DNA from: Candidatus Dojkabacteria bacterium
GTDB lineage: Bacteria; Patescibacteriota; Dojkabacteria; J137
Length of the DNA: 64,000 nucleotides
Direction of reading: 5' to 3'
NCBI GenBank assembly: GCA_041750555.1
Contig: JBGSZB010000016.1
Span: 19,725 to 83,724 of the forward strand
Part shown: positions 1 to 53,816 of the stretch, piece after piece
Layout of the letters: each line of letters opens with the position of its first letter
Numbering within the stretch: the first letter of the stretch is position 1
Notes under the pieces: model-generated
The model's input: only the letters and a program-made list of their open reading frames with translations
Told to the model about the DNA's origin: nothing
The model's database searches: none
Made by a program: the position numbers and the translations under genes

Positions 1-46
1 TGTTTCAATTCTAATTAGGTTTTGCATAAATTAACATATTATTAGG

Positions 47-2421: not shown

Positions 2422-2847
2422 CTATAAAAACAAGGTTAGTGTAAAACTCATTAATAAATAAACAACAAAGCTATATGCTGTATTTAATAAAAAAAGTTTT
2501 TTACTAGATCTTTCAAAAATTACTGGATTAAATAGTGTTGTAATAACAAAAGTTAATGTAATCATAAAGCTAGTTGCAATTGCATTAGGAAATTTATCTA
2601 AACCTGATAACATTAAAGAATATTGTAGTACAGAGTTAATTCCGGTTGTTATTAATAATGCATTAATTATGGTAAACAAAATCTCTTTATTACTCATGTG
2701 ATTTAAACCTTCTCTTCTATTTACTAACTTTCTCCATGTGTTTCCAAAAAGATATGGTGAATACCAAAACATTCCTATTACAATATTTACTATAGCGGTA
2801 ACAATTATAGCTAAGATATTTACATTAACGTTAAATACTTCAAACAT
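2422..2847 (-). CDS. DUF1761-like small membrane protein
   Basis: FWYSPYLFGNTW motif; several TM helices. Confidence 0.4.
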   Translation of the reverse strand: MFEVFNVNVNILAIIVTAIVNIVIGMFWYSPYLFGNTWRKLVNRREGLNHMSNKEILFTIINALLITTGINSVLQYSLMLSGLDKFPNAIATSFMITLTFVITTLFNPVIFERSSKKLFLLNTAYSFVVYLLMSFTLTLFL

Positions 2848-2960
2848 ATTTTATTGATAATAAATAAGATTAAATAATTATACATAATTATTAACTCATA
2901 AGTATGGACATCACCTTGAAAAAAATATATATTTGTTAGTAAGTATTTTAAAAGATAATT

Positions 2961-5900
2961 ATGCCAAAAGGACACATAAAGATTGGTAAGTATAAAATCC
3001 ATCATCATCATTTGTTGATGTTTGTTATTATATCCTCCCTTGTGATAATTGGTGTATTAGCTTCTAAAGGCGTGTTCTTATTAAACGCAGCAACTTCTCC
3101 TTGGAATCAAACAGATTGGAGTGCTGGAGTTGGAGGATCTACTACAGATCAATTTGCTTCATCTACAAATATAGATTTTACAAATTCCGGTGAAATAGCT
3201 CTTGAAAAATCAAGTGCATTAGATTGGTACAATACAAGTTGGTTACATAGAAGAAAGATAGTTTTTAATAATACTGATGCAAATATTGGTGTAACCTCTC
3301 AAGCACTTGTAGATTTTTCATTTCCTGTTAAATTTACTGATGGAGTTAATATAGATTATGCTAAAACACAAAATGCAGGTCAAGATATTAGATTTACTGA
3401 TTGTGATGGAACTACAGAACTAAGTTACCAAATAGAAAAGTGGGATGAACTGGGAGAATCATTAGTTTGGGTAAAAGTTCCACAAATTGATCAAAATTCA
3501 AGTACAGATTGTATATACACTTATTATAATAATGTTGCAGCTACAGATGGACAGGGAGTAACAAGTAATGTTTGGAGTGATAATTACAAGCTTGTATATC
3601 ATATGAATGAAGCAGAAACTGTCCAAGCTACAGATTCATCCCCTAAGGGCAATAATATTGCAGCAAGTGGAACTCCAAATCAACCTAAATCTGCTACAGG
3701 TCAACTATCATTGGGTAGACTTACAGGTAGAGACGAAACAACAGGGAACAACACAAGAGGATTCTCAAACTTTAATACTTTAGACTTTGATCTAGAGGGA
3801 AAAACTAGCTTTACTGTTTCTCTTTGGTTAAACAGACAGAATGACTTTAGTACAGCTACAGGAGAGATCATCTACTTCGCTGGTAATACTGGCGGTGGAA
3901 CATCAGGACAAAGAGATATTTATCTGTCATTAGTTAATGGTACTATGGGTTCACCAGGTATAAGTACTAATTACTTTGTACCTAAAAATACTTGGGTGAA
4001 GTTTACTATTAGTTATGATAGTCCTAATAACCTAATGTATTTGTATGGAAATAATGAGCTCGTATCTACAACTACATATTCAACTGTAAATTTTTCACCC
4101 CTTGGGTTTAACGTAAACAGACTAGGGGTAAGATTTAATGGAACACAAAGATTTGGTGCTTACCTTGATGAAGTAAGAATAATCGCTGAGCACAGAACAA
4201 GAGCTGAATTAAATGCAGAGTACTTGGCAGAGACCAGTGGATTTACATCATATCAAGCTGAAGTTGGTTACTATAAAACAAGCGCAACACTTTTATCTAA
4301 TATATTTGATACAGAGCAAAAGAGTGATTGGGGTAATATAACATATACAGTTTCAGGTAGCGGATTAACCCTTAAAGCAAGAAGTGGTGCACAAGCTAAC
4401 CTAAGTGATGCTGATAATTTTAATACTTGTGATGCTATAACATCAGGTACAGATTTAACAGATAATGATTGTGTATATGATTCTGATAGATATATACAAT
4501 ATCAGGTTGATTTAACTTCAGATGGAGGAACAACGCCTGTATTAACTGATGTATCACTAGTATTTAGTCCAAGTGAATTAACTGATCCAGATGTGAATGC
4601 AACAAGTGTAGAAATATCAGGTGTAAGTGAAGGCGATTGGATAAACTATGAACCTACATTTACTTGGGATGATGCAACAGATAATTTGGGAGGTAGTGGA
4701 ATTTTAGGATATTGTTTAGCATTAGAAGAGGCAACAATTGAAAGTCCAACGAACTTAGATCCAGAAATAACATCTGGAGTTTTAGGTAGCGATAATTTAA
4801 GATGGGGATTCTGTCCATATATAGTTACAACTACTTCCCTTGATGTATCTGCAGTTACAGGATTAGATTTAACATCAAATAAACAATACTATTTATCTGT
4901 AAGAGCTATAGATAATTCAGGTAATATTTTTGATAGTGGAGATGTAAATGATTACCGAAATCTCTTTTCATTTAAACATGATAACGTACCACCAACTAAT
5001 CCTACATATGTTAGTTTACCTGGTAACTTTGTATCTTCTAAAGATGTAACACTAACTTGGCCTGTAGCCTCAGGTGGAGCAGATGATGATGCATCACTTG
5101 TTGCAGGTCTTCAATACAAGATTGGAGATAGTGGAACATGGATGGGAGACTTACACCTAGGTACAGAAGATCTAACTGACTTATTAAATAATGATGGAAG
5201 TTATACAACTGATGTTACAACTGATTATCCTGTTATTTTAGATGGATTAAATAACTTATATTTAAGAACACTTGATAATGCAGGAAATATTAGTAGCAGT
5301 AACTTAAGTGCTGTTTTAAAAATAAATACTAATGCACCATCAGAACCACAAAATCTAACTGTTTCAGAAACACCTCGTACTGAGAATGATTATTCATTTT
5401 CATGGGAACCACCTGCTACATTTACTGGAAGTGTTAATGGAATTACATATTGTTATACCATTAATGAGTTACCTTCCCTTAGTACTTGTAACTATACATC
5501 TCCTGGAAGTTTAAGTTTAGCTAGCGATGCATACGCTAATCAACCAGGAAACAATGTTTTTCGTATTGCCGCAAGAGATGAGGCTTTTAATATTAATTAC
5601 AGTGTATTTACTTCAGTTAACTTTGAATATACAGGAGATGCTCCAGGAATGCCACAAAACTTAAGCATTGCTGATGTATCCATAAAAGATCAAAGTGATT
5701 GGAGATTAGTTGTTTCTTGGATTGAACCTAGTAGTTTAGGAGCAGGAGTATCTAACTACAAAGTATATAGAAGTACAACTGAAGCTACATGTTCTAGTAA
5801 TCCTGGTGCATTTAGCGAAGTTGGAACAACTACAAGTCCATCAAAAATATTTTCAGATACGGGTTTAACCCAACAAACTTACTATTACTGTGTTAAAGCT

Positions 5901-30378: not shown

Positions 30379-31536
30379 ATGAGATTATATAATACTTCTA
30401 TATTATTAAATACCCATATGAATATTAATAGCATTACCCCGACTTCTCAGGACTTTGAACCCAAAGTAGCAGATTACCGCAGATTTAATCTTGAACCTTA
30501 TCAAAAAAGAATAATTGATTTACGAAATAAATTAAATAGTGTTTATGATACTCTAAATAATCTTGTAAAAGACCCTGACTATGAAACTAAAGAAGTTTCG
30601 ATTGAAGACTATGAAGCTATTATTGAACATCTTAGATTACTTAATAATGAGTATGAAAAGTTAATAAAATACTTTACAAAAAGGAATGTTGCAAATTATT
30701 TGTATCCGCTTATTCTTCATGATTCTATTAAACCACTTTATACTCTTATACCTTATTTAGGTATGCTTACTTATGGTATAGATGATTACAAAGTTATTGT
30801 TAAAGAGAGCTTAGATTCCACTTTTACTAGTATAAGAACCTACTTAGATATCTTAGAGAAAATATCTACTTCTAATTTATTTGATACAAACCTCTCTTGC
30901 TTAGATCTAGCCAATGCACAAGGCTTAGATAGCACAGAAAGGGGAGGACTGTATCAAATCACATATAATGGGAAACTAAAAGAAATTGATTTAACAGACT
31001 TAAAAGGATTTTCGACACTTGAAATGTTTTTCCCAATCAATACAGCATTAATTAATGCTATACGAAGAGAAGATGTAACAAAGATAAAAATATCAGAAGT
31101 TCATGACGAAGCTACAGGAAATACGACATACTTAATTGCTGATAATTCACCAGTTAAATGGAATACCTCCCAAGATGAAACTCCTGAAGGATTTACAAAA
31201 CTGGCTATGGAAGCATATTTTTTAGGTATGGAATTCCCAGAATCTCCTGTTAAATCAGTATCGGGTGGTGCCCAAATGTCAATAGAACTTGCAGGTAAAA
31301 GAGATGCGAGATCAAATGATACTGATAAATCTTATCAATTAATAGAACAAAACCAAGTTGAGATAGAGTCTGCTAAAGCTGAGAATAAGTCACTTCATTT
31401 AGAACAATTTATTGGATATAAAGTTTTAGTATTAAAATTTAAGAAAGGTACACTAATAGTAGATTACCTATCTAAAAACCCTAAGAAGAATCAGGATACT
31501 GAAGCAGATGAAGAAGCTCTTATTGCTGCCGCCTAA
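30379..31536 (+). CDS. hypothetical protein
   Basis: 385 aa ORF, soluble, no motif recognised. Confidence 0.5.
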   Translation: MRLYNTSILLNTHMNINSITPTSQDFEPKVADYRRFNLEPYQKRIIDLRNKLNSVYDTLNNLVKDPDYETKEVSIEDYEAIIEHLRLLNNEYEKLIKYFTKRNVANYLYPLILHDSIKPLYTLIPYLGMLTYGIDDYKVIVKESLDSTFTSIRTYLDILEKISTSNLFDTNLSCLDLANAQGLDSTERGGLYQITYNGKLKEIDLTDLKGFSTLEMFFPINTALINAIRREDVTKIKISEVHDEATGNTTYLIADNSPVKWNTSQDETPEGFTKLAMEAYFLGMEFPESPVKSVSGGAQMSIELAGKRDARSNDTDKSYQLIEQNQVEIESAKAENKSLHLEQFIGYKVLVLKFKKGTLIVDYLSKNPKKNQDTEADEEALIAAA

Positions 31537-32083: not shown

Positions 32084-32842
32084 TTAATCTCCCAAAGTTT
32101 TCTTTGGGAGATTTCTAATATTTCTAGTAGCGTGTTTAACTATCCATTTAGTATTTACATTATCACTTTTACTCCATTCATTAATTACTTTAATAGCATA
32201 ATCATAGTTATCTTTAAGCATATCATTTAAGTTATTAGCTACTGATTTTTTAACAAAGAGTATATTATCTTCTTTTAAATTATTTATTACACTTAATACT
32301 AATTCTGGATTTTTTATACTCTCATCTAATTTAAAGCTCCATGGTAATCTAGATCTAACTCCTTCACTAGCTAATCTTCTAATATGAAAGTTAGAGTCCA
32401 ATGACCATTTTTTCATTAAGTTATATGTTTTCTTTGGATATTTTTTTAAAAATGGTCTAATTGCATATTCTCCAGTATTTCTTTTAGTTAATTCATATAT
32501 TGCATTTATACTTTCATCATAGTGATCTAATCCGTAAAGAATAATAAAAGTACTAATAGGGAGTAACCAATAATATTCTTTAAACATTCCAGTTTCTTTT
32601 AAATTTTCATTACCCATTATACTTATTAATATCTTAATAGCTTTAGAATATTCTTTAGGTAAATGTTTATGTAATGCTTTAGCTATTAATTCAACTCTAC
32701 CACTGTATTCTAGGTCTAAGTATTCCCTAGCTATGTAATTAATAAATGAAGTAGTATTAAATTCTGGATATTCCTTTATTATCTTTAAAGATAAATCTAT
32801 AGCTAATTGTGTATCAAACCAATCTTTTACTTTTTTAGTCAT
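32084..32842 (-). CDS. DNA alkylation repair enzyme family (AlkC/AlkD-like HEAT-repeat glycosylase)
   Basis: HEAT-like repeats; WSLDSNFHIRRLASEGVR and KKSVANNLND motifs typical of PF08713. Confidence 0.55.
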   Translation of the reverse strand: MTKKVKDWFDTQLAIDLSLKIIKEYPEFNTTSFINYIAREYLDLEYSGRVELIAKALHKHLPKEYSKAIKILISIMGNENLKETGMFKEYYWLLPISTFIILYGLDHYDESINAIYELTKRNTGEYAIRPFLKKYPKKTYNLMKKWSLDSNFHIRRLASEGVRSRLPWSFKLDESIKNPELVLSVINNLKEDNILFVKKSVANNLNDMLKDNYDYAIKVINEWSKSDNVNTKWIVKHATRNIRNLPKKTLGD

Positions 32843-32843
32843 A

Positions 32844-33254
32844 CTATTTTATACTAATTTCTTTATTTAATACTAAACCAGCTAATCTTGCATATTCTTC
32901 AAAATCAGGTATTAACTTATCTTCTTCTATCATCTTGTCATAAATTCTTTGCGAAGCATATCCATAAAAACCAAATCTTTCGAATCTGAAATTTGATATT
33001 TTAACTTCCTTCCCATACCTCCATAATAGATAAAGTAATCTGTGATTGCCTTCAGCAGCAAAGAATCTCTTTTTACCATTAATATCTGTTACTTCTGTTA
33101 TTAAGATATCTGTACTTGATACATCTAATGTATTATTACTTGTTATAGGTCCTTCATCCCATAAATGATAAGGTTGTCCATTAAAAACTTTTTGTAAACT
33201 AAAACTTCTAGGTAAATCATGAGGAATTATATCCATTACTCTTATAGGTTCCAT
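32844..33254 (-). CDS. ParB/sulfiredoxin-like nuclease-domain protein
   Basis: FFAAEGNHRLLYL matches the ParB/Srx xxGxHRxxA motif; 136 aa. Confidence 0.4.
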   Translation of the reverse strand: MEPIRVMDIIPHDLPRSFSLQKVFNGQPYHLWDEGPITSNNTLDVSSTDILITEVTDINGKKRFFAAEGNHRLLYLLWRYGKEVKISNFRFERFGFYGYASQRIYDKMIEEDKLIPDFEEYARLAGLVLNKEISIK

Positions 33255-33313
33255 ATTTCTTAAACTAAATAGTTATATAATCTCATAAATATTGTATAAT
33301 TCAAATACCTTAA

Positions 33314-33403
33314 GGAGGGGTACCCAAGTGGCTCAAGGGGAGGGTTTGCTAAACCCTTAGTACGGAGTAATCCGTAGCGCAGGTTCGAATCCTGTTCCCT
33401 CCG
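33314..33403 (+). tRNA. tRNA-Ser (anticodon GCT)
   Basis: Acceptor GGAGGGG/TCCCTCC; anticodon stem GGGTT/AACCC with loop TTGCTAA; long variable arm (TTAGTACGGAGTAATCCGTAGC); T-arm GCAGGTTCGAATCCTGT; no encoded CCA. Confidence 0.85.
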
Positions 33404-33433
33404 TATTTTTCTAAAGACAGTTTAATTACCTAA

Positions 33434-34183
33434 ATGAGAAGACCCAGAGAAGATTTGATAGCTATTATAAATGATGCCAACTCATTATTGTACGATTCAT
33501 CAATTTATACAGTACTAGGGACAAATAACCCCTACGATGAGGTTTACGAAAATTTAACTGAAAAGGGATACTATCTTACTGCTTTCTCCGGCATGACGAT
33601 ACTAGGATTTTATTCAAGAATATTTTATATGATAAAACTATTTAAGCCTAAAGTATTATCTCCCAAACAAGTCAATGCACTAAATGAAATAAAGGAAATA
33701 GCTAAAAATAATAAAATTAAAGGACTTTGTTATATAAAAAATCCCGAATCTAATCTAACTAGTGATTTAGATCATTTTAGGAGTTTCATGAAGTACCTAT
33801 TGAATCAAGGATTGGATCTTGGATTAAACTCAAATAATTATGAATCTGCTTGGAAACAGTTTAGAAATACGATCGCTCATCTTGCTTTTCCAGGACTTCC
33901 AATCGGTGGGAAACATATACCTAAAGATGATAAGGATGCAATATTACGACTTGGACTACCTATATATGATGCCGAAAAAGCTTTTGATATACTTAGAAAA
34001 GGATCTAAACCAACAGATACTTTTACTTATACTGACGGTACGCTGCACCTAAACAGTTATGTTCTTATTTCATATATTCCTATAATTAGAAATCACTTAA
34101 TATCTATTGTAAATGATGTAAGTGAAGAGAAATGCCAATTTGCAATAGATGACTTAAAGGAAATCTGGAACAGACAAAAATAA
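33434..34183 (+). CDS. HEPN-like / Abi-like protein (RNxxAH motif)
   Basis: FRNTIAHLAF fits the Rx4-6H HEPN motif in the RNxxAH variant found in Abi_2/Swt1-type HEPN proteins; first gene after tRNA-Ser. Confidence 0.4.
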   Translation: MRRPREDLIAIINDANSLLYDSSIYTVLGTNNPYDEVYENLTEKGYYLTAFSGMTILGFYSRIFYMIKLFKPKVLSPKQVNALNEIKEIAKNNKIKGLCYIKNPESNLTSDLDHFRSFMKYLLNQGLDLGLNSNNYESAWKQFRNTIAHLAFPGLPIGGKHIPKDDKDAILRLGLPIYDAEKAFDILRKGSKPTDTFTYTDGTLHLNSYVLISYIPIIRNHLISIVNDVSEEKCQFAIDDLKEIWNRQK

Positions 34184-34277
34184 GAAATACACAAACAAAA
34201 TGCAATTTAGAAGATATTCTTAATAATTTGACCGGGACAATTTTTGTTTTATAATCACATATATTAATACATATAAC

Positions 34278-35219
34278 ATGACAAAACCTCTTTCAAAATT
34301 GGTTAAAGTAGAACTTAGGGAAGTATGGGGACATGAAGCTATAGATTTTACTAATTGGTTAGCAATGCAAGAGAATTTAGATATTTTAGGCAAAGAGATA
34401 GGAGTTGAGATTAAGCTTATAAAGACAGAGGCAAGTGTGGGTAAATTTAACGTTGATATATTAGCTGAAGAGGAGTCCTCTGGGAGAAAAATAATAATTG
34501 AAAATCAGCTCGAAGATACTAATCACGATCATTTAGGCAAAATTATTACTTATGCTTCAGGATATGACTCAGAAATTATTATATGGATTGTTAAAAATTT
34601 TAGAGACGAGCATAAGAAAGCAATTGAGTGGCTAAACGAGCATACAGATGAATCTATTAACTTCTTTTTAATAAAAGTTGAACTATGGCAAATAGATAAT
34701 TCATATCCAGCTCCAAAGTTCGAAATTATTTCAAATCCCAATGAGTGGGCTAAAGCAATTAAGACCATATCTCTTTCAGGTGAGTTAACGGAGACAAAAT
34801 TACAGCAACTAGGATTTTGGGATAAATTTAAAAATTATGTTAGGGAAAGAGATCAAAATATTAGGTTACAAACACCTCGACCTCAACATTGGTATGATGT
34901 AAGTATGGGAAGTTCTTATGGTCATGTTGCACTTACCTTAAATACTCGGGAGAACTTAATAGGATGTGAGGTCTATATCGATAGGAATAAAGATCTTTAT
35001 AAGTTCTTAATTGAAAAGAAAGAATTAATTGAAAGCGAAATTGGTGAATCTTTGAAGTGGGTCGATGCATCTGTAGCTTCAAGAATTAAAATAAAGAAAA
35101 AGATTTCAAACTTGTTCAATGATAATAGTAACGAAGAAAAATTTAAATGGATGTATGAAAAGACCATTCTTTTCCAAAAAGTTTTTATCAAACACTTTAA
35201 GGAATTTAAAAATGAATAA
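34278..35219 (+). CDS. DUF4268 family protein with N-terminal NucS/PD-(D/E)xK-like nuclease domain
   Basis: VELREVWGHEAIDFTNWL...VGKFNVDILAEEE...IIENQLEDTNHDHLGKIITYASG...EHKKAIEWLNEHT...FFLIKVELWQI is the stereotyped DUF4268 signature. Confidence 0.65.
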   Translation: MTKPLSKLVKVELREVWGHEAIDFTNWLAMQENLDILGKEIGVEIKLIKTEASVGKFNVDILAEEESSGRKIIIENQLEDTNHDHLGKIITYASGYDSEIIIWIVKNFRDEHKKAIEWLNEHTDESINFFLIKVELWQIDNSYPAPKFEIISNPNEWAKAIKTISLSGELTETKLQQLGFWDKFKNYVRERDQNIRLQTPRPQHWYDVSMGSSYGHVALTLNTRENLIGCEVYIDRNKDLYKFLIEKKELIESEIGESLKWVDASVASRIKIKKKISNLFNDNSNEEKFKWMYEKTILFQKVFIKHFKEFKNE

Positions 35220-35220
35220 T

Positions 35221-35760
35221 ATGACAATAGAAATAATCCAAGGTAACAAAGTAACTAATGAAGATTTAGAATTAATTAATAAATATAGAAAGATTAGATT
35301 ATCTAGAGATAGAGTATGGGATCATAAAATAAATAACGAATTCCATGATAGAACATTCTTTCTAGTTAGAGATAATAATCAATTAGTAGCATTTGGTACA
35401 TTAAGAGATATTAAGATATATATAAATGATATAGAAGTAACTATTAAAGGTATACAAGCAATAATATCAATAATACAAGGTATGGGTTATGGTAAATACT
35501 TAATGCAAAACATGATTAAATATGCAATTAATAATAATTTAATATTAATAGGATTTTGTGAAAGAAAGAATAAAGAATTTTATATTAAAAGTGGTTTAGA
35601 AGTATTTGAAGATAAAAACTTAAACTTTATATACATTAATGAAAAACTTGAAGAATATAGTGAAGAGGGAGATGTAATATATTATTCAAAGGAAAATAAC
35701 ATTGTAAGAGAAGCTATAGTTAGTAATATTAAGATTAAACACTTTATTCCCCATTGGTAA
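35221..35760 (+). CDS. GNAT-family N-acetyltransferase
   Basis: IQGMGYGKYLMQ resembles GNAT motif A (Q/RxxGxG/A). The track ORF (35119) overlaps the upstream gene; ATG 35212 or 35221 abuts its stop at 35217-35219. Confidence 0.55.
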   Translation: MTIEIIQGNKVTNEDLELINKYRKIRLSRDRVWDHKINNEFHDRTFFLVRDNNQLVAFGTLRDIKIYINDIEVTIKGIQAIISIIQGMGYGKYLMQNMIKYAINNNLILIGFCERKNKEFYIKSGLEVFEDKNLNFIYINEKLEEYSEEGDVIYYSKENNIVREAIVSNIKIKHFIPHW

Positions 35761-35831
35761 AACTGAATTTGTATTACAATACAATGCAATTATTTAAGAA
35801 TCATTGTATAAATAAATATTTAAATTTACAA

Positions 35832-36611
35832 ATGACCACACTTAGTTTATATATAGATGAGACTGGTAATGATAATCCTTTAAACAAGCAATCTGAATAC
35901 TATATTCTTTGTGGAATAGTTGTGTTAAAAGATAAACAAGAGGATTTAAAAATCTTATCTGATCAAATTAAATTCAAATATTGGAATCGAACTAATATTG
36001 TTTTCCACTCTATAGATATTCAGAGGAATCAAAAAGATTTTATTCTTTTTAATCAAAACCCAACTTTTAAAGATGAATTTTTAAAGGATTTATTCAAACT
36101 TTTGAATAGTGGTCCCTTCAAAATACTCTCCTGTGTAGTTAATAAAGATAAAGCAAGAGAAAAAGGATGGAATAGAGTAAAAGTTTTACAAGAAACATCT
36201 AAGTCACTTTTTAAAAACTATCTTGTACTTTTAACCTCAATTAAAAATACAAATGGAAGAATTATTGTAGAAGCTAGTAGTTCGGAGAAGGATATCTTTT
36301 ACCTAAAAGCCTTAAGTTATTTTTTAACAAATGGTATTTATAGTTTAAAAATAGACTCTTCTATGGTTAGATCTAGATTAACTTCAATTTCATTTGTTTC
36401 TAAGAAAAATAATGACATTGAAGAACAGATAGCTGATTTAATAGCATATGGAATAAAATGTTACCTTGAATATGAAAAAGGGGAAATATTTCATAAAAAC
36501 TCTTATGAATACAAAATCTTACAAGTCGTTAAGTCTAAACTATATTCAAAACCTTCAAACACAAGAAAGAATTTATTAAATGAAGTGAATCCTTTAGAAC
36601 TTATTATATAG
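35832..36611 (+). CDS. DUF3800 domain protein
   Basis: N-terminal LSLYIDETGN, the DUF3800 signature (YIDESG). The track start (TTG 35754) overlaps the GNAT stop; in-frame ATG at 35832. Confidence 0.6.
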   Translation: MTTLSLYIDETGNDNPLNKQSEYYILCGIVVLKDKQEDLKILSDQIKFKYWNRTNIVFHSIDIQRNQKDFILFNQNPTFKDEFLKDLFKLLNSGPFKILSCVVNKDKAREKGWNRVKVLQETSKSLFKNYLVLLTSIKNTNGRIIVEASSSEKDIFYLKALSYFLTNGIYSLKIDSSMVRSRLTSISFVSKKNNDIEEQIADLIAYGIKCYLEYEKGEIFHKNSYEYKILQVVKSKLYSKPSNTRKNLLNEVNPLELII

Positions 36612-37551: not shown

Positions 37552-37953
37552 ATGAAAAAAGGGTTTTTTGCAAATATAGAGGAATTAACAATAAATAACT
37601 CTAACTTTAGACAAGTACTATACACTGGTAAATACTCCCAATTAGTATTAATGACTTTAAAGCCAGGAGAAGAAATTGGAATGGAAGTACATAATGGAAC
37701 AGATCAATTCTTTAGATTTGAAAGTGGAGAAGGTAAGGTAATTGTAAATGATAGTGAGTATATAGTTACAGATGGAGATTGTGTAGTAATACCAAGTGAT
37801 TGTAGCCATAACGTTATAAATACATCAAGTACAGTAGACTTAAAAATGTATACAATATATTCTCCATCACACCATAAGGATAAAGTAATACATCCAACAA
37901 AAACTGATGCATTAAATGACGATGAAGAGTTTGATAATGTTACCACTGAGTAA
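37552..37953 (+). CDS. cupin-domain protein
   Basis: GEEIGMEVHNGTDQFFRFESGEGKV...GDCVVIPSDCSHNVIN two-motif cupin signature. Confidence 0.7.
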   Translation: MKKGFFANIEELTINNSNFRQVLYTGKYSQLVLMTLKPGEEIGMEVHNGTDQFFRFESGEGKVIVNDSEYIVTDGDCVVIPSDCSHNVINTSSTVDLKMYTIYSPSHHKDKVIHPTKTDALNDDEEFDNVTTE

Positions 37954-37999: not shown

Positions 38000-40900
38000 A
38001 TGAAGATCCTAATAATTGAAAAGGACTTAATAGCGAGGCTTGTTATTAAGAATATAATATACAAAAGCTTAAGTGTTGATAGGAATCAATTAGACATATA
38101 TACAACCCCTAATCCACTACAAGGAATTGGAACATGTTTTGTAATTAATCCAGATATAATAATTTTTGATGAAAAAGAATATATAACTGATGATAAAAGT
38201 ATTAGTGAATATATCTCTTCAAATAAAAATATATTAATTAATTCACCAATAATAATTAAAAACTTCTCTAGATTTACTGAAGATCGTAACTATGTAGAAC
38301 ACTATTCACAATTCTTAGAGGCTAAATTAAAAGAATTTAACTTAAGTAATGGTTTAAAAATAGATACTATTGAAAAAATATTACTTAAGTTACTGTATCC
38401 ATCTAAAAAAGAAAAAAGATATAAGAATAATATTTTAAATAAATCGTATATAGTTTTAAATAACCTTTATTTAGATTTATTAACTGGTGTATATAGATTA
38501 CTTTGGGATAGGAAAGAAATTGAGAGAGATGATTTAACAGTAACTTATGAAAAGAAAACATTTAATCAAAGAATTTATCCTAAGCTATTTATAGCGTCCT
38601 CTATTACTCTATCTATACTTTTAAATGTATCGCTATCTCTTCTTCCAATACTTGGATTAGGATACTTATCACAAAGAGATGCTACAGCTCAGATTACTGA
38701 TAACTGTATAGCTATAGATAAAGACTTTAATCAAGAAATAGGTTTAATAGATTTAGCAAGTATTGCAACTAAATACAATGATGAATGTGTTAATACAAGT
38801 TATCATTGGGGATGTGGTTCTATGGATAGCAATAGTGATAGTAGTGTAGATGTAATAGATTTAGCATATTTAGTTCAAAGATATAATCAAAGTTGTTTTA
38901 AAGGTGGTGAATGGTTTGTTTCAACCACTGGAAGTCCTACAGGAGATGGAAGTATAGATGATCCATGGGATATTGCTACAGGGTTAAATAGTTTTAATAC
39001 AATTCAACCTGGAGATACATTATGGTTAAGAGGTGGAACTTACGGAACTGGAGCGGGAACTATTTATCAAACTAAATTAATAGGTACAGAAGAAAGTCCA
39101 ATCGTTATTAAAAGTTATCCAAATGAATGGGCTGTAATAGATGGAGGAATACAACAAGTAGCGCTATCTGGAGCTGCACATATGTGGTTTTGGGGATTTG
39201 AAGTAACTAATTCAAGTATAGTAAGGCCAATAGATAATGTAAGTGCATTTAGATCTGCAGGATTTGATCTTCATGGTCCTGGTACAAAAGTAATAAATCT
39301 ATATATAAATAATACTGGACATCCCTCTATTGGTTTCTGGGATAGAATTGAAGATGGGGGAGAGGTATATGGGACAGTATCTTGGGGGGCAGGGGTTAGA
39401 GATGATACTCCAGAGTACGGAGGAGCTTGGAGAGGAGCTTCAATTTATGGACAAAACACTATTGGAAATAGAAATATTGAAAACAATATATTCTTTTCTA
39501 ATTCAACTACAGGTTTAAGTACTCACGGTGTTGATGGACATGTTAATAACTTTACATATAGATATAATTCAGTATTTAACAACAACCAAGCTGATTTAAT
39601 AGCCTACAGTACAAATCACGGAGCATCAGGATTAGTAATTGATAATAATAGTTTTTATTCTGAAAGAGGAATGGCTGTAGGAAGTATGCTAATTGGAACT
39701 TTTGGAAATAATTACGATGCAACAATTACAAATAATATAGTTTTTAACCCATACAAAGGAATATATTTTAGAAAATATGAAACAATAAATTTAACTAATA
39801 ACTTAATTATCTCTGATACCGACTTAGTAATTCAAGATAGTTCAGTTACAACATATAACTCAAGTAACAACAAATTTATATCTAGAGGTGGATCAATATT
39901 AAAACTTGATGGTGTAAGTTCAAGAACATTTAGTGCTCTAACTACACATTTATCAGATTCAACCTCAACTTACTCTAGATATATAGATGAAAGCAATAAA
40001 GTACTATTAAAACCTAATAAGTATGAATATGGGAAAGCTCATTTAACTGTATATAACTTTGAAAATAAGATTACTGAGAGCATTAATCCTTCAACTTTTT
40101 TATCGTATGGTGATTACTACATTGTAAGAGATGTACTAGATTACGATAATCCAATAATAAAAGGTAGATATTTAGGTAGTAATATAACTATTCCTCTACA
40201 TCTATATGTTTATCAACCAATTACAGGAACAGTATTTAATGCTAATCATAAGCACTTTGCTCCTATGTTTAATAACTATTCAATAGAGAGAGTAAACTCT
40301 AGTAGTGGGAATAAAGTAAATGCCCCAGTATTAGTGGGAGATCTTGAATACTCAACATCTGTTTATTCTGTAGAATTAACTTCAACTACACCTAATGCCC
40401 TAATATATTACACAACAGATGGAAGTGAACCAACAACATCCAGCACTCTATACTCTGGGGCGTTTAATATCTCAAGCACTGTAGAGATTAAAGCAATAGC
40501 AGTATTAGACGGTTATGAAGATAGTACAAAGGTAAAATACAATATATATAAAATTGATTTAGAGGATGGATTAAAAGGATATTACAAACTAGATGAAGAG
40601 AGTGGTACAACAGTACTAAACTCATCTAACGATCCATCTAAATTCCCTGTAGGTACAACAGTTGGAACAGGTATTGAAAGAATAAGTGGAATTGATGGAG
40701 GTGCATATAGACTAGATGGAGCGGGGAGTTACTTTAACGTGTTATCAGTTTCAGGATTAACAGAAGCTTATTCAATATCAGGGTGGGCAAAATTAAGTGG
40801 TAATTCAGGAACCTTACTAAACATAGGATCAAGTGCATGGAGTACTGTAAACTTTAGATTAACCCTAACAGCATCTACTAATATGGTAAACAATATGACT

Positions 40901-41209
40901 CATTTTCCTGGAGATTTCTCTGGAACTGGAGTAGAAAGTAATAATTGTAACAGTGTAACTGAATGGAACTTTTATACTGTAACTTTTGATGGAACAAGTC
41001 AAAGAATATATTGTAATGGAATATTTAAAAGTATAACAACAAGAGAGGATGGCCCCCTAGTTGCGGGAACCCGAACAACTATGAATGTTGGATTTAATGG
41101 ATTTGACCAATCGTTTACTGGAGATATTGATGAGATAAGGATATATAATAGAACTCTAAACGAAAGAGAGGTTTATTCATTATTTAATCAATTTAAAGAC
41201 CAAATTTAA
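38000..41209 (+). CDS. large surface protein: N-terminal receiver-like domain, TM helix, dockerin-like Cys-bracketed repeats, parallel beta-helix (pectate-lyase fold), chitobiase/hexosaminidase-C-like domain, C-terminal LamG_3 lectin domain
   Basis: MKILIIEKDL...DIIIFDEK receiver-like; TM ~aa 195-215; CIAIDKDFNQEIGLIDLASIATKYNDEC and CGSMDSNSDSSVDVIDLAYLVQRYNQSC; DGSIDDPWDIATGLNSFNTIQPGDTLWLRGGTYG beta-helix start; ALIYYTTDGSEPTTSS; C-terminal DIDEIRIYNRTLNEREV LamG_3 end motif. Confidence 0.75.
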   Translation: MKILIIEKDLIARLVIKNIIYKSLSVDRNQLDIYTTPNPLQGIGTCFVINPDIIIFDEKEYITDDKSISEYISSNKNILINSPIIIKNFSRFTEDRNYVEHYSQFLEAKLKEFNLSNGLKIDTIEKILLKLLYPSKKEKRYKNNILNKSYIVLNNLYLDLLTGVYRLLWDRKEIERDDLTVTYEKKTFNQRIYPKLFIASSITLSILLNVSLSLLPILGLGYLSQRDATAQITDNCIAIDKDFNQEIGLIDLASIATKYNDECVNTSYHWGCGSMDSNSDSSVDVIDLAYLVQRYNQSCFKGGEWFVSTTGSPTGDGSIDDPWDIATGLNSFNTIQPGDTLWLRGGTYGTGAGTIYQTKLIGTEESPIVIKSYPNEWAVIDGGIQQVALSGAAHMWFWGFEVTNSSIVRPIDNVSAFRSAGFDLHGPGTKVINLYINNTGHPSIGFWDRIEDGGEVYGTVSWGAGVRDDTPEYGGAWRGASIYGQNTIGNRNIENNIFFSNSTTGLSTHGVDGHVNNFTYRYNSVFNNNQADLIAYSTNHGASGLVIDNNSFYSERGMAVGSMLIGTFGNNYDATITNNIVFNPYKGIYFRKYETINLTNNLIISDTDLVIQDSSVTTYNSSNNKFISRGGSILKLDGVSSRTFSALTTHLSDSTSTYSRYIDESNKVLLKPNKYEYGKAHLTVYNFENKITESINPSTFLSYGDYYIVRDVLDYDNPIIKGRYLGSNITIPLHLYVYQPITGTVFNANHKHFAPMFNNYSIERVNSSSGNKVNAPVLVGDLEYSTSVYSVELTSTTPNALIYYTTDGSEPTTSSTLYSGAFNISSTVEIKAIAVLDGYEDSTKVKYNIYKIDLEDGLKGYYKLDEESGTTVLNSSNDPSKFPVGTTVGTGIERISGIDGGAYRLDGAGSYFNVLSVSGLTEAYSISGWAKLSGNSGTLLNIGSSAWSTVNFRLTLTASTNMVNNMTHFPGDFSGTGVESNNCNSVTEWNFYTVTFDGTSQRIYCNGIFKSITTREDGPLVAGTRTTMNVGFNGFDQSFTGDIDEIRIYNRTLNEREVYSLFNQFKDQI

Positions 41210-50189: not shown

Positions 50190-53100
50190 ATGGCAATAGA
50201 AGCTGTTATTACTAACAAAGATTACTCAACTAGACTTAAAAAAAATATTGGAACTAAAGGACTTAAGATTGAAAGAGTATTTACAAAGAAAGGTAGTGAT
50301 AGGTATGAAGGCATTGAATTTGATTTAAGAGATTCAAGGATATCTAACCCTGATGGATCAACAGTCTTTGAAATGAAGGATGTTGAAGTACCACTTGAAT
50401 GGAGTCAAATTGCAACAGATATATTAGTTCAAAAATATTTTAGAAAGAAAGGTGTTCCTCAAAAGGATAGAAATGGAAATGTATTAAAAGATAAATCAGG
50501 GGAGGCAATATTAGGTAGTGAAAAAAGCGCTAAAGAAACAATTAATAGATTAGCTCTAGCTTGGAGATGGTGGGGTGAACAATATGGATACTTTAATTCA
50601 AAAGATGATGCAGATAGCTTTGAGGATGAATTAGCATATATATTAATGAAACAGATTGCAGCTCCAAATAGTCCTCAATGGTTTAATACAGGATTAAACT
50701 TAGCTTATGGAATAAATGGTAAAGCTCAAGGACACTGGTATGTTGATCCAGAAACAAAAAAATCTAAATTATCTGAAGATGCATATACAAGAGGACAACC
50801 TCATGCATGTTTTATACTTTCTATTGAAGATGATTTAGTAAATGAAGGCGGAATTTTTGATGTATTAAAAACTGAAGCTAGAATATTTAAATATGGATCA
50901 GGAACTGGAACTAACTTTTCTTCTATTAGAGCTAGTAATGAGACATTATCAGGAGGAGGAATCTCTAGTGGATTAATGAGTTTTTTAAAAATATTTGATG
51001 CAGGAGCAGGAGCTATTAAATCTGGAGGGACTACACGAAGAGCTGCTAAAATGGTTACTCTAGATATGGATCACCCAGAAATTGAACAATTTATTGTTTG
51101 GAAAGCAAGAGAGGAACAAAAGGTAGCAGCATTAGTTACAGGTTCCTACATTAACTACGATCATTTAAAACGAATAATGTTATCTGCAGAAACTAATGGT
51201 ATTGATCCAGTTAAAAATCCAGGATTAAAAAAATTAATAAATCAAGCTAAGTTAGATTATGTACCAGAAAACTACATTAAAAGAATATTAATGTTGGTTG
51301 AAAATGGAATTAAAAGTGAAGATTTTACTTTTGAAAGATATGATACAGATTTTAGATCTGAAGCATATTATACAGTTTCAGGACAAAATTCTAACAACTC
51401 AATTAGAGTTACTAATGAATTTTTTGAAGCCCTAAAAAATGATAGTGATTGGAATTTAATAAATAGAACTAACAGGGAAGTTTCTAAAACATTAAAAGCT
51501 AGATATTTATGGAATAAAGTTATTGAATCAGCATGGCAAAGTGCTGATCCTGGAGTTCAATATGATACAACTATTAATGAATGGCATACATGTCCAAGCG
51601 ACGGCAGAATTAATGCATCTAATCCATGTTCAGAATATATGTTTTTAGATAATACTGCATGTAACTTAGCTTCAATTAATTTAGTAAAATTTTATAATCC
51701 AGAAACTGGAGTATTTGATGTAGAAAGTTATAAACATGTTATTAGATTATTTACTATTGTATTAGAGATCTCTGTATTATCAGCTCATCTACCAACTAAA
51801 TCTGTTGCTGAAAGAACTTACCTTTATAGAACATTAGGATTAGGATATGCAAATATTGGAGCACTTTTAATGCAACAAGGTGTAGCTTATGAGAGTGAAA
51901 AAGGTTATGCAATAACTGGAGCCTTAACTTCAATTATGTGTGGAGAATCATATGCAACTTCTGCAGAAATGGCAAAAGTATTAGGTACTTTTGATAAATA
52001 CGAAGATAACAAAGATTCTATGCTTAGAGTTATTAGAAACCATAGAAGAGCATCATATAACACTCCTGATAGTGATTACGAAGATTTAACAATTAAACCT
52101 CAAGGTATTAATTCTAGTTTAATTGATGCAAGTTTGGGATATAACGCTATGGCTTCTTGGGATTACGCTTTAAAAATGGGAGAAGAGTTTGGATATAGAA
52201 ATGCACAAGTAACTGTTATTGCTCCAACTGGGACAATAGGCTTAGTTATGGATTGCGATACTACAGGTATTGAACCTGATTTTGCTGTTGTTAAATTTAA
52301 AAAATTAGTTGGGGGTGGATACTTTAAGATTGTTAATCAATCAATAAGACCAGCTCTTAAAAACTTAGGGTATTCTGAAACCGAAATAAATGATATTGAA
52401 AAATATATTATTGGAACTCCAAGTATTAAAGATTCTCCATATATTAATTTTGAAAGTTTAAAAGCTAAAGGCTTTACCGAAAAAGAACTAACAATTATTG
52501 AAAACAACTTAGAGAATGCATATAACTTAAGTAGTGTATTTTCTAAATGGAACCTAGGTGAAGACTTTCTTAAAAATACTTTAAAGTTAAGTAATGAGGA
52601 TATTAATTCTTCTAACTTATTAAAAAGTTTAGGGTTTAGTAATGAACAAATTGAATTAGCTGAAGAGTATGTTTGTGGAGCAATGACAATTGAAGGAGCT
52701 CCTCATTTAAAGCTTGAACATTATTCTGTTTTTGATTGTGCTAATAAATGTGGTAAAAAAGGAAAAAGATATATCTCTACAATGGGTCATTTAAGACAGA
52801 TGGCTGCAGCTCAACCTTTTATTAGTGGAGCTATTAGTAAAACTGTAAATTTACCTGAAGAAGCGACCTTAGAAGATATAGATGAAGCATATGTTAAAGG
52901 ATGGGAGTTAATGTTAAAAGCAAATGCACTTTACAGAGATTCTTCAAAATTAAGTCAACCACTAAATACTTCTAGTGATTCTAAATATGCTGAGTTATTT
53001 AATTTCAAAGAGGAGGACATTAAAGAAGAGGTAAGTTTAATTCAAATGCAAAAGGCTATTAAAGAAGAAGTTAGTGCACCAAGAAGAAGAAGATTACCTG

Positions 53101-53816
53101 AAGAGAGACATAGTCTTACACATAAGTTTAGTGTTGCAGGTCATGAAGGATATATTACTGTAGGACTATTTGAAGAAGGTACTCCCGGAGAAGTCTTTAT
53201 TACAATGAGTACTGCAGGAAGTTTCTTATCTGGAATTATGGATGCATTAGCTGTAAGTTTATCTCTTAATTTACAATATGGAGTGCCCCTAGAAGCTATT
53301 GTTAGAAAGTTAACTAGTACTAAATTTGAACCATCTGGCATGACTTCAAACAAAGAAATACCATTAGTTAAATCTATTACTGACTACATTGGTAGATGGT
53401 TAGGATTAAAGTTCTTACCTGCAGAAAAAGCTAAACTTTATCATAATGAAGAGTTAGTTGAAAGATCATATAGGGAGGGTAGTAATTTTAGAATTTTAAT
53501 TCCATATGTAAATGGAAGTGGTCATACCGAGGTTAAATCTAGACAAATCTTACACATTAATGAAGAGGAGAGTATAAAGGTTGTAGAAGTTCAAGCGATA
53601 ACTCAAGCTGAACCTTCTCAAATGACTTTAGATCATACTAAACCATTAGAAGATTTAAATGACTCTAAGATTGATTCAATAGGAGATAAGATTAGAATTG
53701 CTAAAGAAAAAGGTTTTACAGGAGAGATGTGTAGTAACTGTGGTAGTATGAATGTGAAACAAAACGGTAGTTGTACTGTATGTGCTGATTGTGGTACTAC
53801 TACTGGTTGTAGTTAA
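50190..53816 (+). CDS. nrdJ: adenosylcobalamin-dependent (class II) ribonucleotide reductase, long form
   Basis: Class II RNR motifs (NPCSEYMFLD-NTACNLASINL, ISKTVNLP); C-terminal Cys-rich zinc ribbon CSNCGS...CTVCADCG; 1208 aa. Confidence 0.9.
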   Translation: MAIEAVITNKDYSTRLKKNIGTKGLKIERVFTKKGSDRYEGIEFDLRDSRISNPDGSTVFEMKDVEVPLEWSQIATDILVQKYFRKKGVPQKDRNGNVLKDKSGEAILGSEKSAKETINRLALAWRWWGEQYGYFNSKDDADSFEDELAYILMKQIAAPNSPQWFNTGLNLAYGINGKAQGHWYVDPETKKSKLSEDAYTRGQPHACFILSIEDDLVNEGGIFDVLKTEARIFKYGSGTGTNFSSIRASNETLSGGGISSGLMSFLKIFDAGAGAIKSGGTTRRAAKMVTLDMDHPEIEQFIVWKAREEQKVAALVTGSYINYDHLKRIMLSAETNGIDPVKNPGLKKLINQAKLDYVPENYIKRILMLVENGIKSEDFTFERYDTDFRSEAYYTVSGQNSNNSIRVTNEFFEALKNDSDWNLINRTNREVSKTLKARYLWNKVIESAWQSADPGVQYDTTINEWHTCPSDGRINASNPCSEYMFLDNTACNLASINLVKFYNPETGVFDVESYKHVIRLFTIVLEISVLSAHLPTKSVAERTYLYRTLGLGYANIGALLMQQGVAYESEKGYAITGALTSIMCGESYATSAEMAKVLGTFDKYEDNKDSMLRVIRNHRRASYNTPDSDYEDLTIKPQGINSSLIDASLGYNAMASWDYALKMGEEFGYRNAQVTVIAPTGTIGLVMDCDTTGIEPDFAVVKFKKLVGGGYFKIVNQSIRPALKNLGYSETEINDIEKYIIGTPSIKDSPYINFESLKAKGFTEKELTIIENNLENAYNLSSVFSKWNLGEDFLKNTLKLSNEDINSSNLLKSLGFSNEQIELAEEYVCGAMTIEGAPHLKLEHYSVFDCANKCGKKGKRYISTMGHLRQMAAAQPFISGAISKTVNLPEEATLEDIDEAYVKGWELMLKANALYRDSSKLSQPLNTSSDSKYAELFNFKEEDIKEEVSLIQMQKAIKEEVSAPRRRRLPEERHSLTHKFSVAGHEGYITVGLFEEGTPGEVFITMSTAGSFLSGIMDALAVSLSLNLQYGVPLEAIVRKLTSTKFEPSGMTSNKEIPLVKSITDYIGRWLGLKFLPAEKAKLYHNEELVERSYREGSNFRILIPYVNGSGHTEVKSRQILHINEEESIKVVEVQAITQAEPSQMTLDHTKPLEDLNDSKIDSIGDKIRIAKEKGFTGEMCSNCGSMNVKQNGSCTVCADCGTTTGCS

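Follow-up and report, generated by a model that had tools for sequence, protein, structure and literature searches.

A rare orphan protein family with an invariant R-N-x3-H motif as a putative stand-alone HEPN-superfamily ribonuclease in Patescibacteria

Ribonucleases (RNases) of the HEPN superfamily carry an Rx4-6H signature in which a polar residue (N, D or H) directly follows the arginine (PMC3710099). Described systems of HEPN type include the Abi_2 proteins, the minimal toxins of MNT-HEPN pairs and the anticodon nucleases PrrC and RloC, and it has been reported that Abi_2 HEPN toxins are neutralised by an upstream structured RNA (bioRxiv 10.1101/2025.04.15.648962). We analysed a 249-aa open reading frame (ORF) in a 64,000-nt stretch of a Candidatus Dojkabacteria contig (JBGSZB010000016.1, positions 19,725 to 83,724), hereafter the window, whose own numbering is used throughout. 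The data indicate that HEPN membership of the encoded protein is likely. On balance, we favour the view that it represents a new, extremely rare family of stand-alone HEPN-superfamily RNases, probably a latent single-gene toxin or abortive-infection-type effector carried as cargo of tRNA-proximal regions.

The family and its invariant motif

A preliminary description of this DNA had reported an ORF containing FRNTIAHLAF, taken as an instance of the HEPN Rx4-6H signature, and both were found at exactly 33434-34183. The features of the gene are as follows.

33434..34183, + strand: 249-aa ORF (ATG to stop, from the ORF list), a putative stand-alone HEPN-superfamily RNase of a new orphan family
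33851..33892, + strand: active-site-like segment W140-x3-R144-N145-x3-H149-x3-P153, from invariant columns of the five-sequence alignment; aligns to HepT W70/R77/N78/H82 and Abi_2 RNxCAH
33815..33817, + strand: codon of invariant D128 in an LDLGL block, from the same alignment; candidate second active-site acidic residue

FRNTIAHLAF comprises residues 143-152 (nt 33860-33889), with R144 encoded at 33863-33865 and H149 at 33878-33880. The Rx4-6H pattern occurs only once in the protein, as R144-N145-T-I-A-H149, and the polar N145 directly follows the arginine. Chance occurrence weighs against assigning the protein on this basis: in 20,000 shuffles of its sequence, Rx4-6H arose in 46% and R[NDH]xxxH in 3.4%, so that R-N-x3-H in one lone sequence is weak evidence.

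Relatives were sought in an exhaustive phmmer search over 1.84 billion cluster representatives. Four full-length relatives were found in total, each a singleton from metagenome assembly, with identities to the 249-aa protein of 41% (P0002), 31% (P0003), 28% (P0004) and 29% (P0005). The alignment of these five sequences (A1; lengths 233-266 aa, identities 22-41%) contains ∼19 invariant columns, including W140, R144, N145, H149 and P153, and yields the family motif W-x3-R-N-x-[ILM]-[AST]-H-x3-P. None of the other 9 arginines and 4 histidines of the protein is invariant. Because R144, N145 and H149 are conserved across the family, the motif rises above chance. Conservation of the arginine-histidine pair among homologues, on which the preliminary description had staked its proposal, thus holds in five of five members. 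The more specific RNxxAH form proposed there holds in part: R, N and H are kept in all members, but the alanine varies (A/S/T/T/A).

The acidic residues of the alignment were also considered. All five members have D128, and all have D or E at position 113. Ex3[KR], an upstream acidic feature that is optional among HEPN families, is missing from the five. D128 falls beside the invariant E of HepT solely in a permissive, low-confidence alignment.

The family is extremely rare, with five full-length members and one partial member across the collections searched. Profile searches up to E=10 returned family members only and nothing new. The partial sixth member (L130), found in metagenome DNA, was all that DNA-pattern scans added from contigs of genomes, metagenomes and viruses, and tblastn against plasmid and phage collections gave 0 matches. 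Pfam, NCBIfam, PHROGs and PADLOC searches of the target, and Pfam, NCBIfam and PADLOC searches of all five members, gave no credible match; library matches to BTRD1, T7 terminase and ferredoxin were dismissed as noise. Neither the single sequence nor the profile retrieved anything from the PDB sequences. The protein therefore lies outside curated families, with no library membership.

To compare the family with established HEPN proteins, we assembled two reference sets from viral contigs. For Abi_2, contigs were scanned with back-translated RNxxAHHxR[LIV]WN; 107 ORFs were extracted and 30 diverse ones aligned. For HepT, 16 HepT/DUF86 proteins were fished by pattern, of which 12 non-redundant ones were confirmed as PF01934. 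According to hhalign, the family aligned to HepT with P 0.031 over 31 columns, placing W140, R144, N145 and H149 on the invariant W70, R77, N78 and H82 of HepT. The observed score of 20.2 was reached by 0.5% of shuffles (12.1 ± 2.2), and reversed-sequence controls scored 15-16. The alignment to Abi_2 (probability 1.4%, P 0.038) covered 25 columns, residues 127-151. It was in register, with DLGL...W...RNxxxH on the Abi_2 fGL...sWL...RNxCAH, and showed no domain-wide similarity. Its score of 21.3 was reached by 1% of column-shuffled controls (14.1 ± 2.4). Significant sequence or profile similarity to any established HEPN family was not reached in Pfam, NCBIfam, PDB or hhalign comparisons. In a calibration, Abi_2 and HepT, which are undisputed HEPN families, aligned with each other over 13 motif columns only (P 0.1). 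Because this pair fails too, weak profile-profile scores are normal between HEPN families, and they neither argue against superfamily membership nor prove it.

A single-sequence AlphaFold model was unusable (pLDDT 39). The model computed with the five-sequence alignment (pLDDT 66, pTM 0.68) is all-helical save one hairpin, with helices at 4-22, 24-31, 36-69, 77-92, 111-124, 136-151, 208-227 and 231-248, and a low-confidence stretch at residues 148-188. In this model, predicted helix 136-151 carries the motif (144-149) at its C-terminal end and leads into the invariant P153 and a loop, a region of moderate to low confidence. Foldseek comparison of the model with PDB and BFVD gave no significant match. 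The HEPN structures listed beside the model were the toxins 7ae2, 5yep and 8xdj, then YutE, AF0298 and TTHA0636, the integron HEPN 3jrt, and Csm6. A membrane protein was also considered, and was ruled out: the Kyte-Doolittle maximum over 19 residues of the hydrophobic helix 46-68 is 1.1-1.8, and the model confidently places this helix in the core. The protein is accordingly modelled as soluble and all-helical, and we infer on moderate evidence a HEPN fold, which typically has as its core an up-and-down bundle of four helices with ∼100-120 residues.

The strongest competitor of this assignment is a helical protein unrelated to HEPN, in which W-x3-RN-x3-H-x3-P would serve ligand or nucleic-acid binding or some other chemistry, and the likeness would stem from a short motif borne by a widespread fold, the helical bundle. 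We regard the unrelated protein as unlikely, if a good deal less so than the other alternatives weighed below.

Position behind tRNA genes

The ORF is preceded on its own strand by a tRNA gene and a promoter-like element.

33314..33403, + strand: tRNA-Ser (anticodon GCU); 30 nt separate its end from the ORF start codon (ARAGORN; Rfam RF00005, 52.1 bits, E 6e-10)
33295..33300, + strand: perfect TATAAT −10-like hexamer, read from the sequence, with 13 nt between it and the tRNA; candidate promoter of a joint transcript of tRNA-Ser and ORF

A consensus scan detected nothing promoter-like in the gap that separates tRNA and ORF, and nothing terminator-like in the whole of 33150-34400. A same-strand tRNA just before the start codon was found in three of the six family loci, with differing identities. 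Besides the tRNA-Ser of the window, a tRNA-Trp (CCA) ends 130 nt before the start codon of P0005 (L003 1656-1860), and in L004 a tRNA with a CUG (Gln) anticodon, whose 5' end is lost at the contig end, lies 17 nt before the start (1-73; RF00005 30.4 bits, above the gathering score). Of the others, L130 and L002 have genes for proteins immediately upstream of the homologue, and L001 has no tRNA within its 104 nt of upstream sequence. As a control, none of the 107 Abi_2 genes in viral contigs follows a tRNA. At a 4% background rate, the probability that at least three of five loci are tRNA-adjacent is ∼6e-4. Because the gaps between tRNA and ORF are very short and neither a promoter nor a terminator was found between them, co-transcription is suggested, and in the window the ORF is probably co-transcribed with tRNA-Ser.

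The L002 stretch contains a further tRNA-like element. Its positions 1-26 (+ strand), 3 kb upstream of P0003, read as a tRNA T-arm and acceptor 3' end (CGCGAGTTCGAATCTCGCACTCTCCG). The Rfam model RF04351 (plastid psbI-rps4 3'UTR) matches the antisense of this fragment and also that of the window tRNA-Ser (33349-33403, − strand). The model seems to capture antisense tRNA-Ser, and the L002 fragment may also derive from a tRNA-Ser.

The ordinary explanation of the tRNA adjacency is that tRNA loci serve as integration hotspots for defence-carrying elements; in E. coli, 18 defence hotspots sit in tRNA loci (PMC10121019). A different explanation is that the protein is a HEPN RNase functionally tied to the upstream tRNA and not devoted to phage defence: an RNA-processing enzyme, an anticodon-type nuclease, or a toxin for which the co-transcribed tRNA or its 3' trailer acts as cis RNA partner, comparable to the type III-like pair AbiF-RCd22. 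This explanation draws on the adjacency in three of six loci at gaps of 17, 30 and 130 nt, set against the Abi_2 control, on the 17- and 30-nt gaps being too short for a promoter, and on the precedent of Abi_2 toxins neutralised by structured RNA. However, the adjacency is not obligatory, as L130 and L002 illustrate, the identity of the tRNA varies among loci, and tRNA loci are ordinary integration hotspots of mobile genetic elements and defence islands. The apparent tRNA 3' end lying 3 kb from P0003 also fits island cargo and not a fixed unit of tRNA and gene. Overall, we consider a functional tie to the tRNA improbable.

A specific version would be a tRNA-coupled HEPN module, in which the RNase gene is set 17-130 nt behind a tRNA and co-transcribed with it, and the tRNA or its 3' trailer would be the cis partner, as antitoxin, sensor or substrate. 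This version is speculative and less probable still. If it were true, ultra-small CPR genomes would contain a tRNA-based counterpart of AbiF-RCd22 or of the anticodon-nuclease defences.

Genomic neighbourhood and the question of an island

We return to the favoured view, that of a stand-alone HEPN RNase gene carried as cargo. The gene downstream of the ORF is a defence candidate with its own promoter.

34228..34255, + strand: strong sigma-70-like promoter for the next gene (TTGACC-16-TATAAT, 11/12; consensus scan)
34278..35219, + strand: PDC-S11 single-gene defence candidate with C-terminal DUF4268 (PADLOC E 4e-117, full length; Pfam DUF4268 E 1e-26; phrog_27742 E 8e-55)

Since the PDC-S11 gene has its own promoter, the ORF and this neighbour are separate transcription units. 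DUF4268 is linked to type IV restriction enzymes, with which it co-occurs, and the selected defences MdgA and MdgB contain it (bioRxiv 10.1101/2025.02.28.640651). PDC-S11 is followed by genes for a GNAT protein, a DUF3800 protein, a GDSL hydrolase, a cupin and a 1069-aa protein, and housekeeping genes begin at ∼45 kb.

At the loci of the homologues, P0003 heads a type I restriction-modification (R-M) operon: hsdM-hsdS follows on the same strand after 16 nt. The gene of P0002 converges with that of a large serine recombinase; P0004 and P0005 have convergent, uninformative neighbours. No neighbour gene is conserved across the loci, and the gene is therefore a single-gene module.

The host belongs to the Patescibacteria (CPR): its TGT shares 62-64% identity with the TGT proteins of metagenome-assembled genomes from Dojkabacteria, Saccharibacteria and other Patescibacteria. 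Synteny with relatives is limited to TGT, Hsp20 and a 523-aa gene, and therefore cannot define island borders. The 22-nt tRNA 3' end has no second copy within 3 mismatches, and no junction repeat of at least 13 nt was found. Among the downstream ORFs scanned, none has a recombinase or integrase domain, and there is no composition shift at the putative island (the window has 28.5% G+C). The ORF had been called the first gene of an island. It is indeed the first gene after tRNA-Ser(GCU), but no integrase, tRNA 3' repeat or composition shift delimits an island there, which is plausible and not delimited. The defence role that had been attached to this position is likewise circumstantial. The PDC-S11/DUF4268 neighbour, the place of P0003 in a type I R-M operon and that of P0002 by a serine recombinase are suggestive only.

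Several other features of these loci were noted. In the window, the GNAT acetyltransferase gene overlaps the start of the DUF3800 gene (TTG at 35754) by 7 nt (35212-36611), which suggests a translationally coupled pair. The 1069-aa protein (38000-41209), encoded in the accessory stretch after the tRNA, has CHB_HEX_C/Fn3-associated and LamG (concanavalin-like) domains and is probably surface-bound or secreted. A small Cupin_2 gene occurs in both the window (37552-37953) and L002 (379-687, the stretch of P0003); the two show no tblastn similarity at E≤1e-3, and the shared cupin may be a coincidence. In L003, a two-gene unit at 2583-4298 (− strand) is convergent with P0005; its first gene, truncated at the contig end, encodes a Polbeta-type nucleotidyltransferase and its second a 359-aa protein without a Pfam match.

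Upstream of the tRNA, between TGT and Hsp20, lies a 385-aa ORF (30379-31536) without a Pfam match. The related Patescibacteria loci L005-L007 also have TGT and Hsp20, but tblastn finds no counterpart of the 385-aa ORF in them, so that it may be a further insertion specific to its lineage. One of these, L006 (JACSRR010000269.1), is labelled Ignavibacteriaceae, and its TGT, Hsp20 and 523-aa gene stand in the Patescibacteria arrangement at 50-65% identity, which suggests a mis-binned CPR contig. Further downstream in the window, a 1208-aa class II ribonucleotide reductase (50190-53816) has a barrel domain that matches Pfam in two separate stretches, together with TSCPD. The split of the barrel could reflect an insertion such as an intein.

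Proposed activity and comparison with known HEPN systems

By analogy with characterised HEPN enzymes, the protein would cleave RNA independently of metal, with H149 as the general base and with R144 and N145 stabilising the transition state, and would leave 2',3'-cyclic phosphate ends. D128 may assist catalysis. The protein would probably dimerise, juxtaposing two R-N-x3-H motifs. As the gene has no conserved partner, the product would most likely be a single-gene toxin or abortive-infection-type effector, whose activity might be kept in check in cis or by a cue from the host or a phage. The gene would travel as cargo of variable, often tRNA-proximal accessory regions. The RNase chemistry, dimerisation, toxicity and defence role are all proposed from what is described for other HEPN proteins.

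If the HEPN assignment holds, the large superfamily of HEPN RNases gains one more small family. A member in the Patescibacteria is of interest because the defence repertoire of CPR bacteria is poorly charted, and the ORF and the adjoining type IV-like candidate PDC-S11/DUF4268 could be tested as a pair. Of all its features, only the recurrent place behind tRNA genes of differing identity could open new ground.

Among known HEPN systems, Cas13a was matched by PADLOC at residues 98-151, which cover RNxxxH. This match, to a 139-position model, was marginal (E 0.006) and occurred in one of the five members. Unlike Cas13a, the family protein has a single HEPN-like motif, not two, and neither a CRISPR array nor other Cas13 features were found.

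The anticodon nucleases PrrC and RloC, HEPN proteins linked to type I R-M systems (PMC3710099), likewise have an R...H motif, and P0003 lies directly upstream of hsdM-hsdS. In the present family, the link to tRNA is only one of position. The family protein also lacks the N-terminal ABC-type ATPase domain of these nucleases, is much smaller and has no sequence match to them.

Compared with the minimal HEPN toxins of MNT-HEPN pairs (HI0074, HepT/SO_3166 and DUF86/YutE; PF01934), the family protein has double the length: it carries ∼35 additional residues at the N terminus, a low-confidence insert of ∼55 residues behind the motif and a pair of C-terminal helices. The HepT model PF01934 matched none of the five members. 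The ORF has no MNT nucleotidyltransferase gene beside it, its neighbours being the tRNA and PDC-S11; the Polbeta nucleotidyltransferase of L003 lies two genes from P0005, on the opposite strand, and is not paired with it. The family also lacks, at H+2, the tyrosine of the HepT RNxxxHxY motif (Y84 in the HepT alignment), having H-L-A, H-A-T, H-I-S and the like in its place. We take this tyrosine to be the AMPylation site of HepT.

Membership of Abi_2 or Swt1, as the preliminary description had proposed, is largely refuted. The Pfam models Abi_2 (PF07751), Swt1 and DUF4145 matched none of the five members even at E≤1, whereas 30 of 30 control proteins matched Abi_2 at E≤1e-3 (best 4e-60). A divergent member of the Abi_2 (AbiD/AbiF) or Swt1 family would explain RNTIAH as an instance of RNxxAH, its registration on RNxCAH in hhalign and the presence of one homologue within an R-M operon, as for many Abi_2 genes (PMC3710099, Table 1), but such an origin is very unlikely given the missing Pfam match, an hhalign alignment of 25 columns only and an equally good match to HepT. 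The invariant residues of Abi_2 are R215, N216, A219, H220, H221, R223, W225 and N226, of which R, N and the first H have counterparts in the family; A219, H221, R223, W225 and N226 do not. RNxCAHHxRlWN as such and the N-terminal YYRL and FD..LR blocks are missing as well. An Rfam scan of 32800-34400 at E≤1 gave the tRNA and chance-level matches, with no abiF-type structured RNA upstream, and no type III-like tandem-repeat RNA antitoxin was found at the locus. The proteins also differ in layout: those of the family have 233-266 aa with the motif near residue 145, and those of Abi_2 ∼300-330 aa with the motif at ∼205-225. What the two share is their general organisation. Abi_2 proteins (lactococcal AbiD/AbiD1/AbiF and C. 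difficile AbiF) are likewise single-gene and of HEPN type, with an RNxxxH core, in Abi_2 of the form RNxxAH, that follows a G-L ... W block, and they too occur in R-M operons and mobile contexts (PMC3710099).
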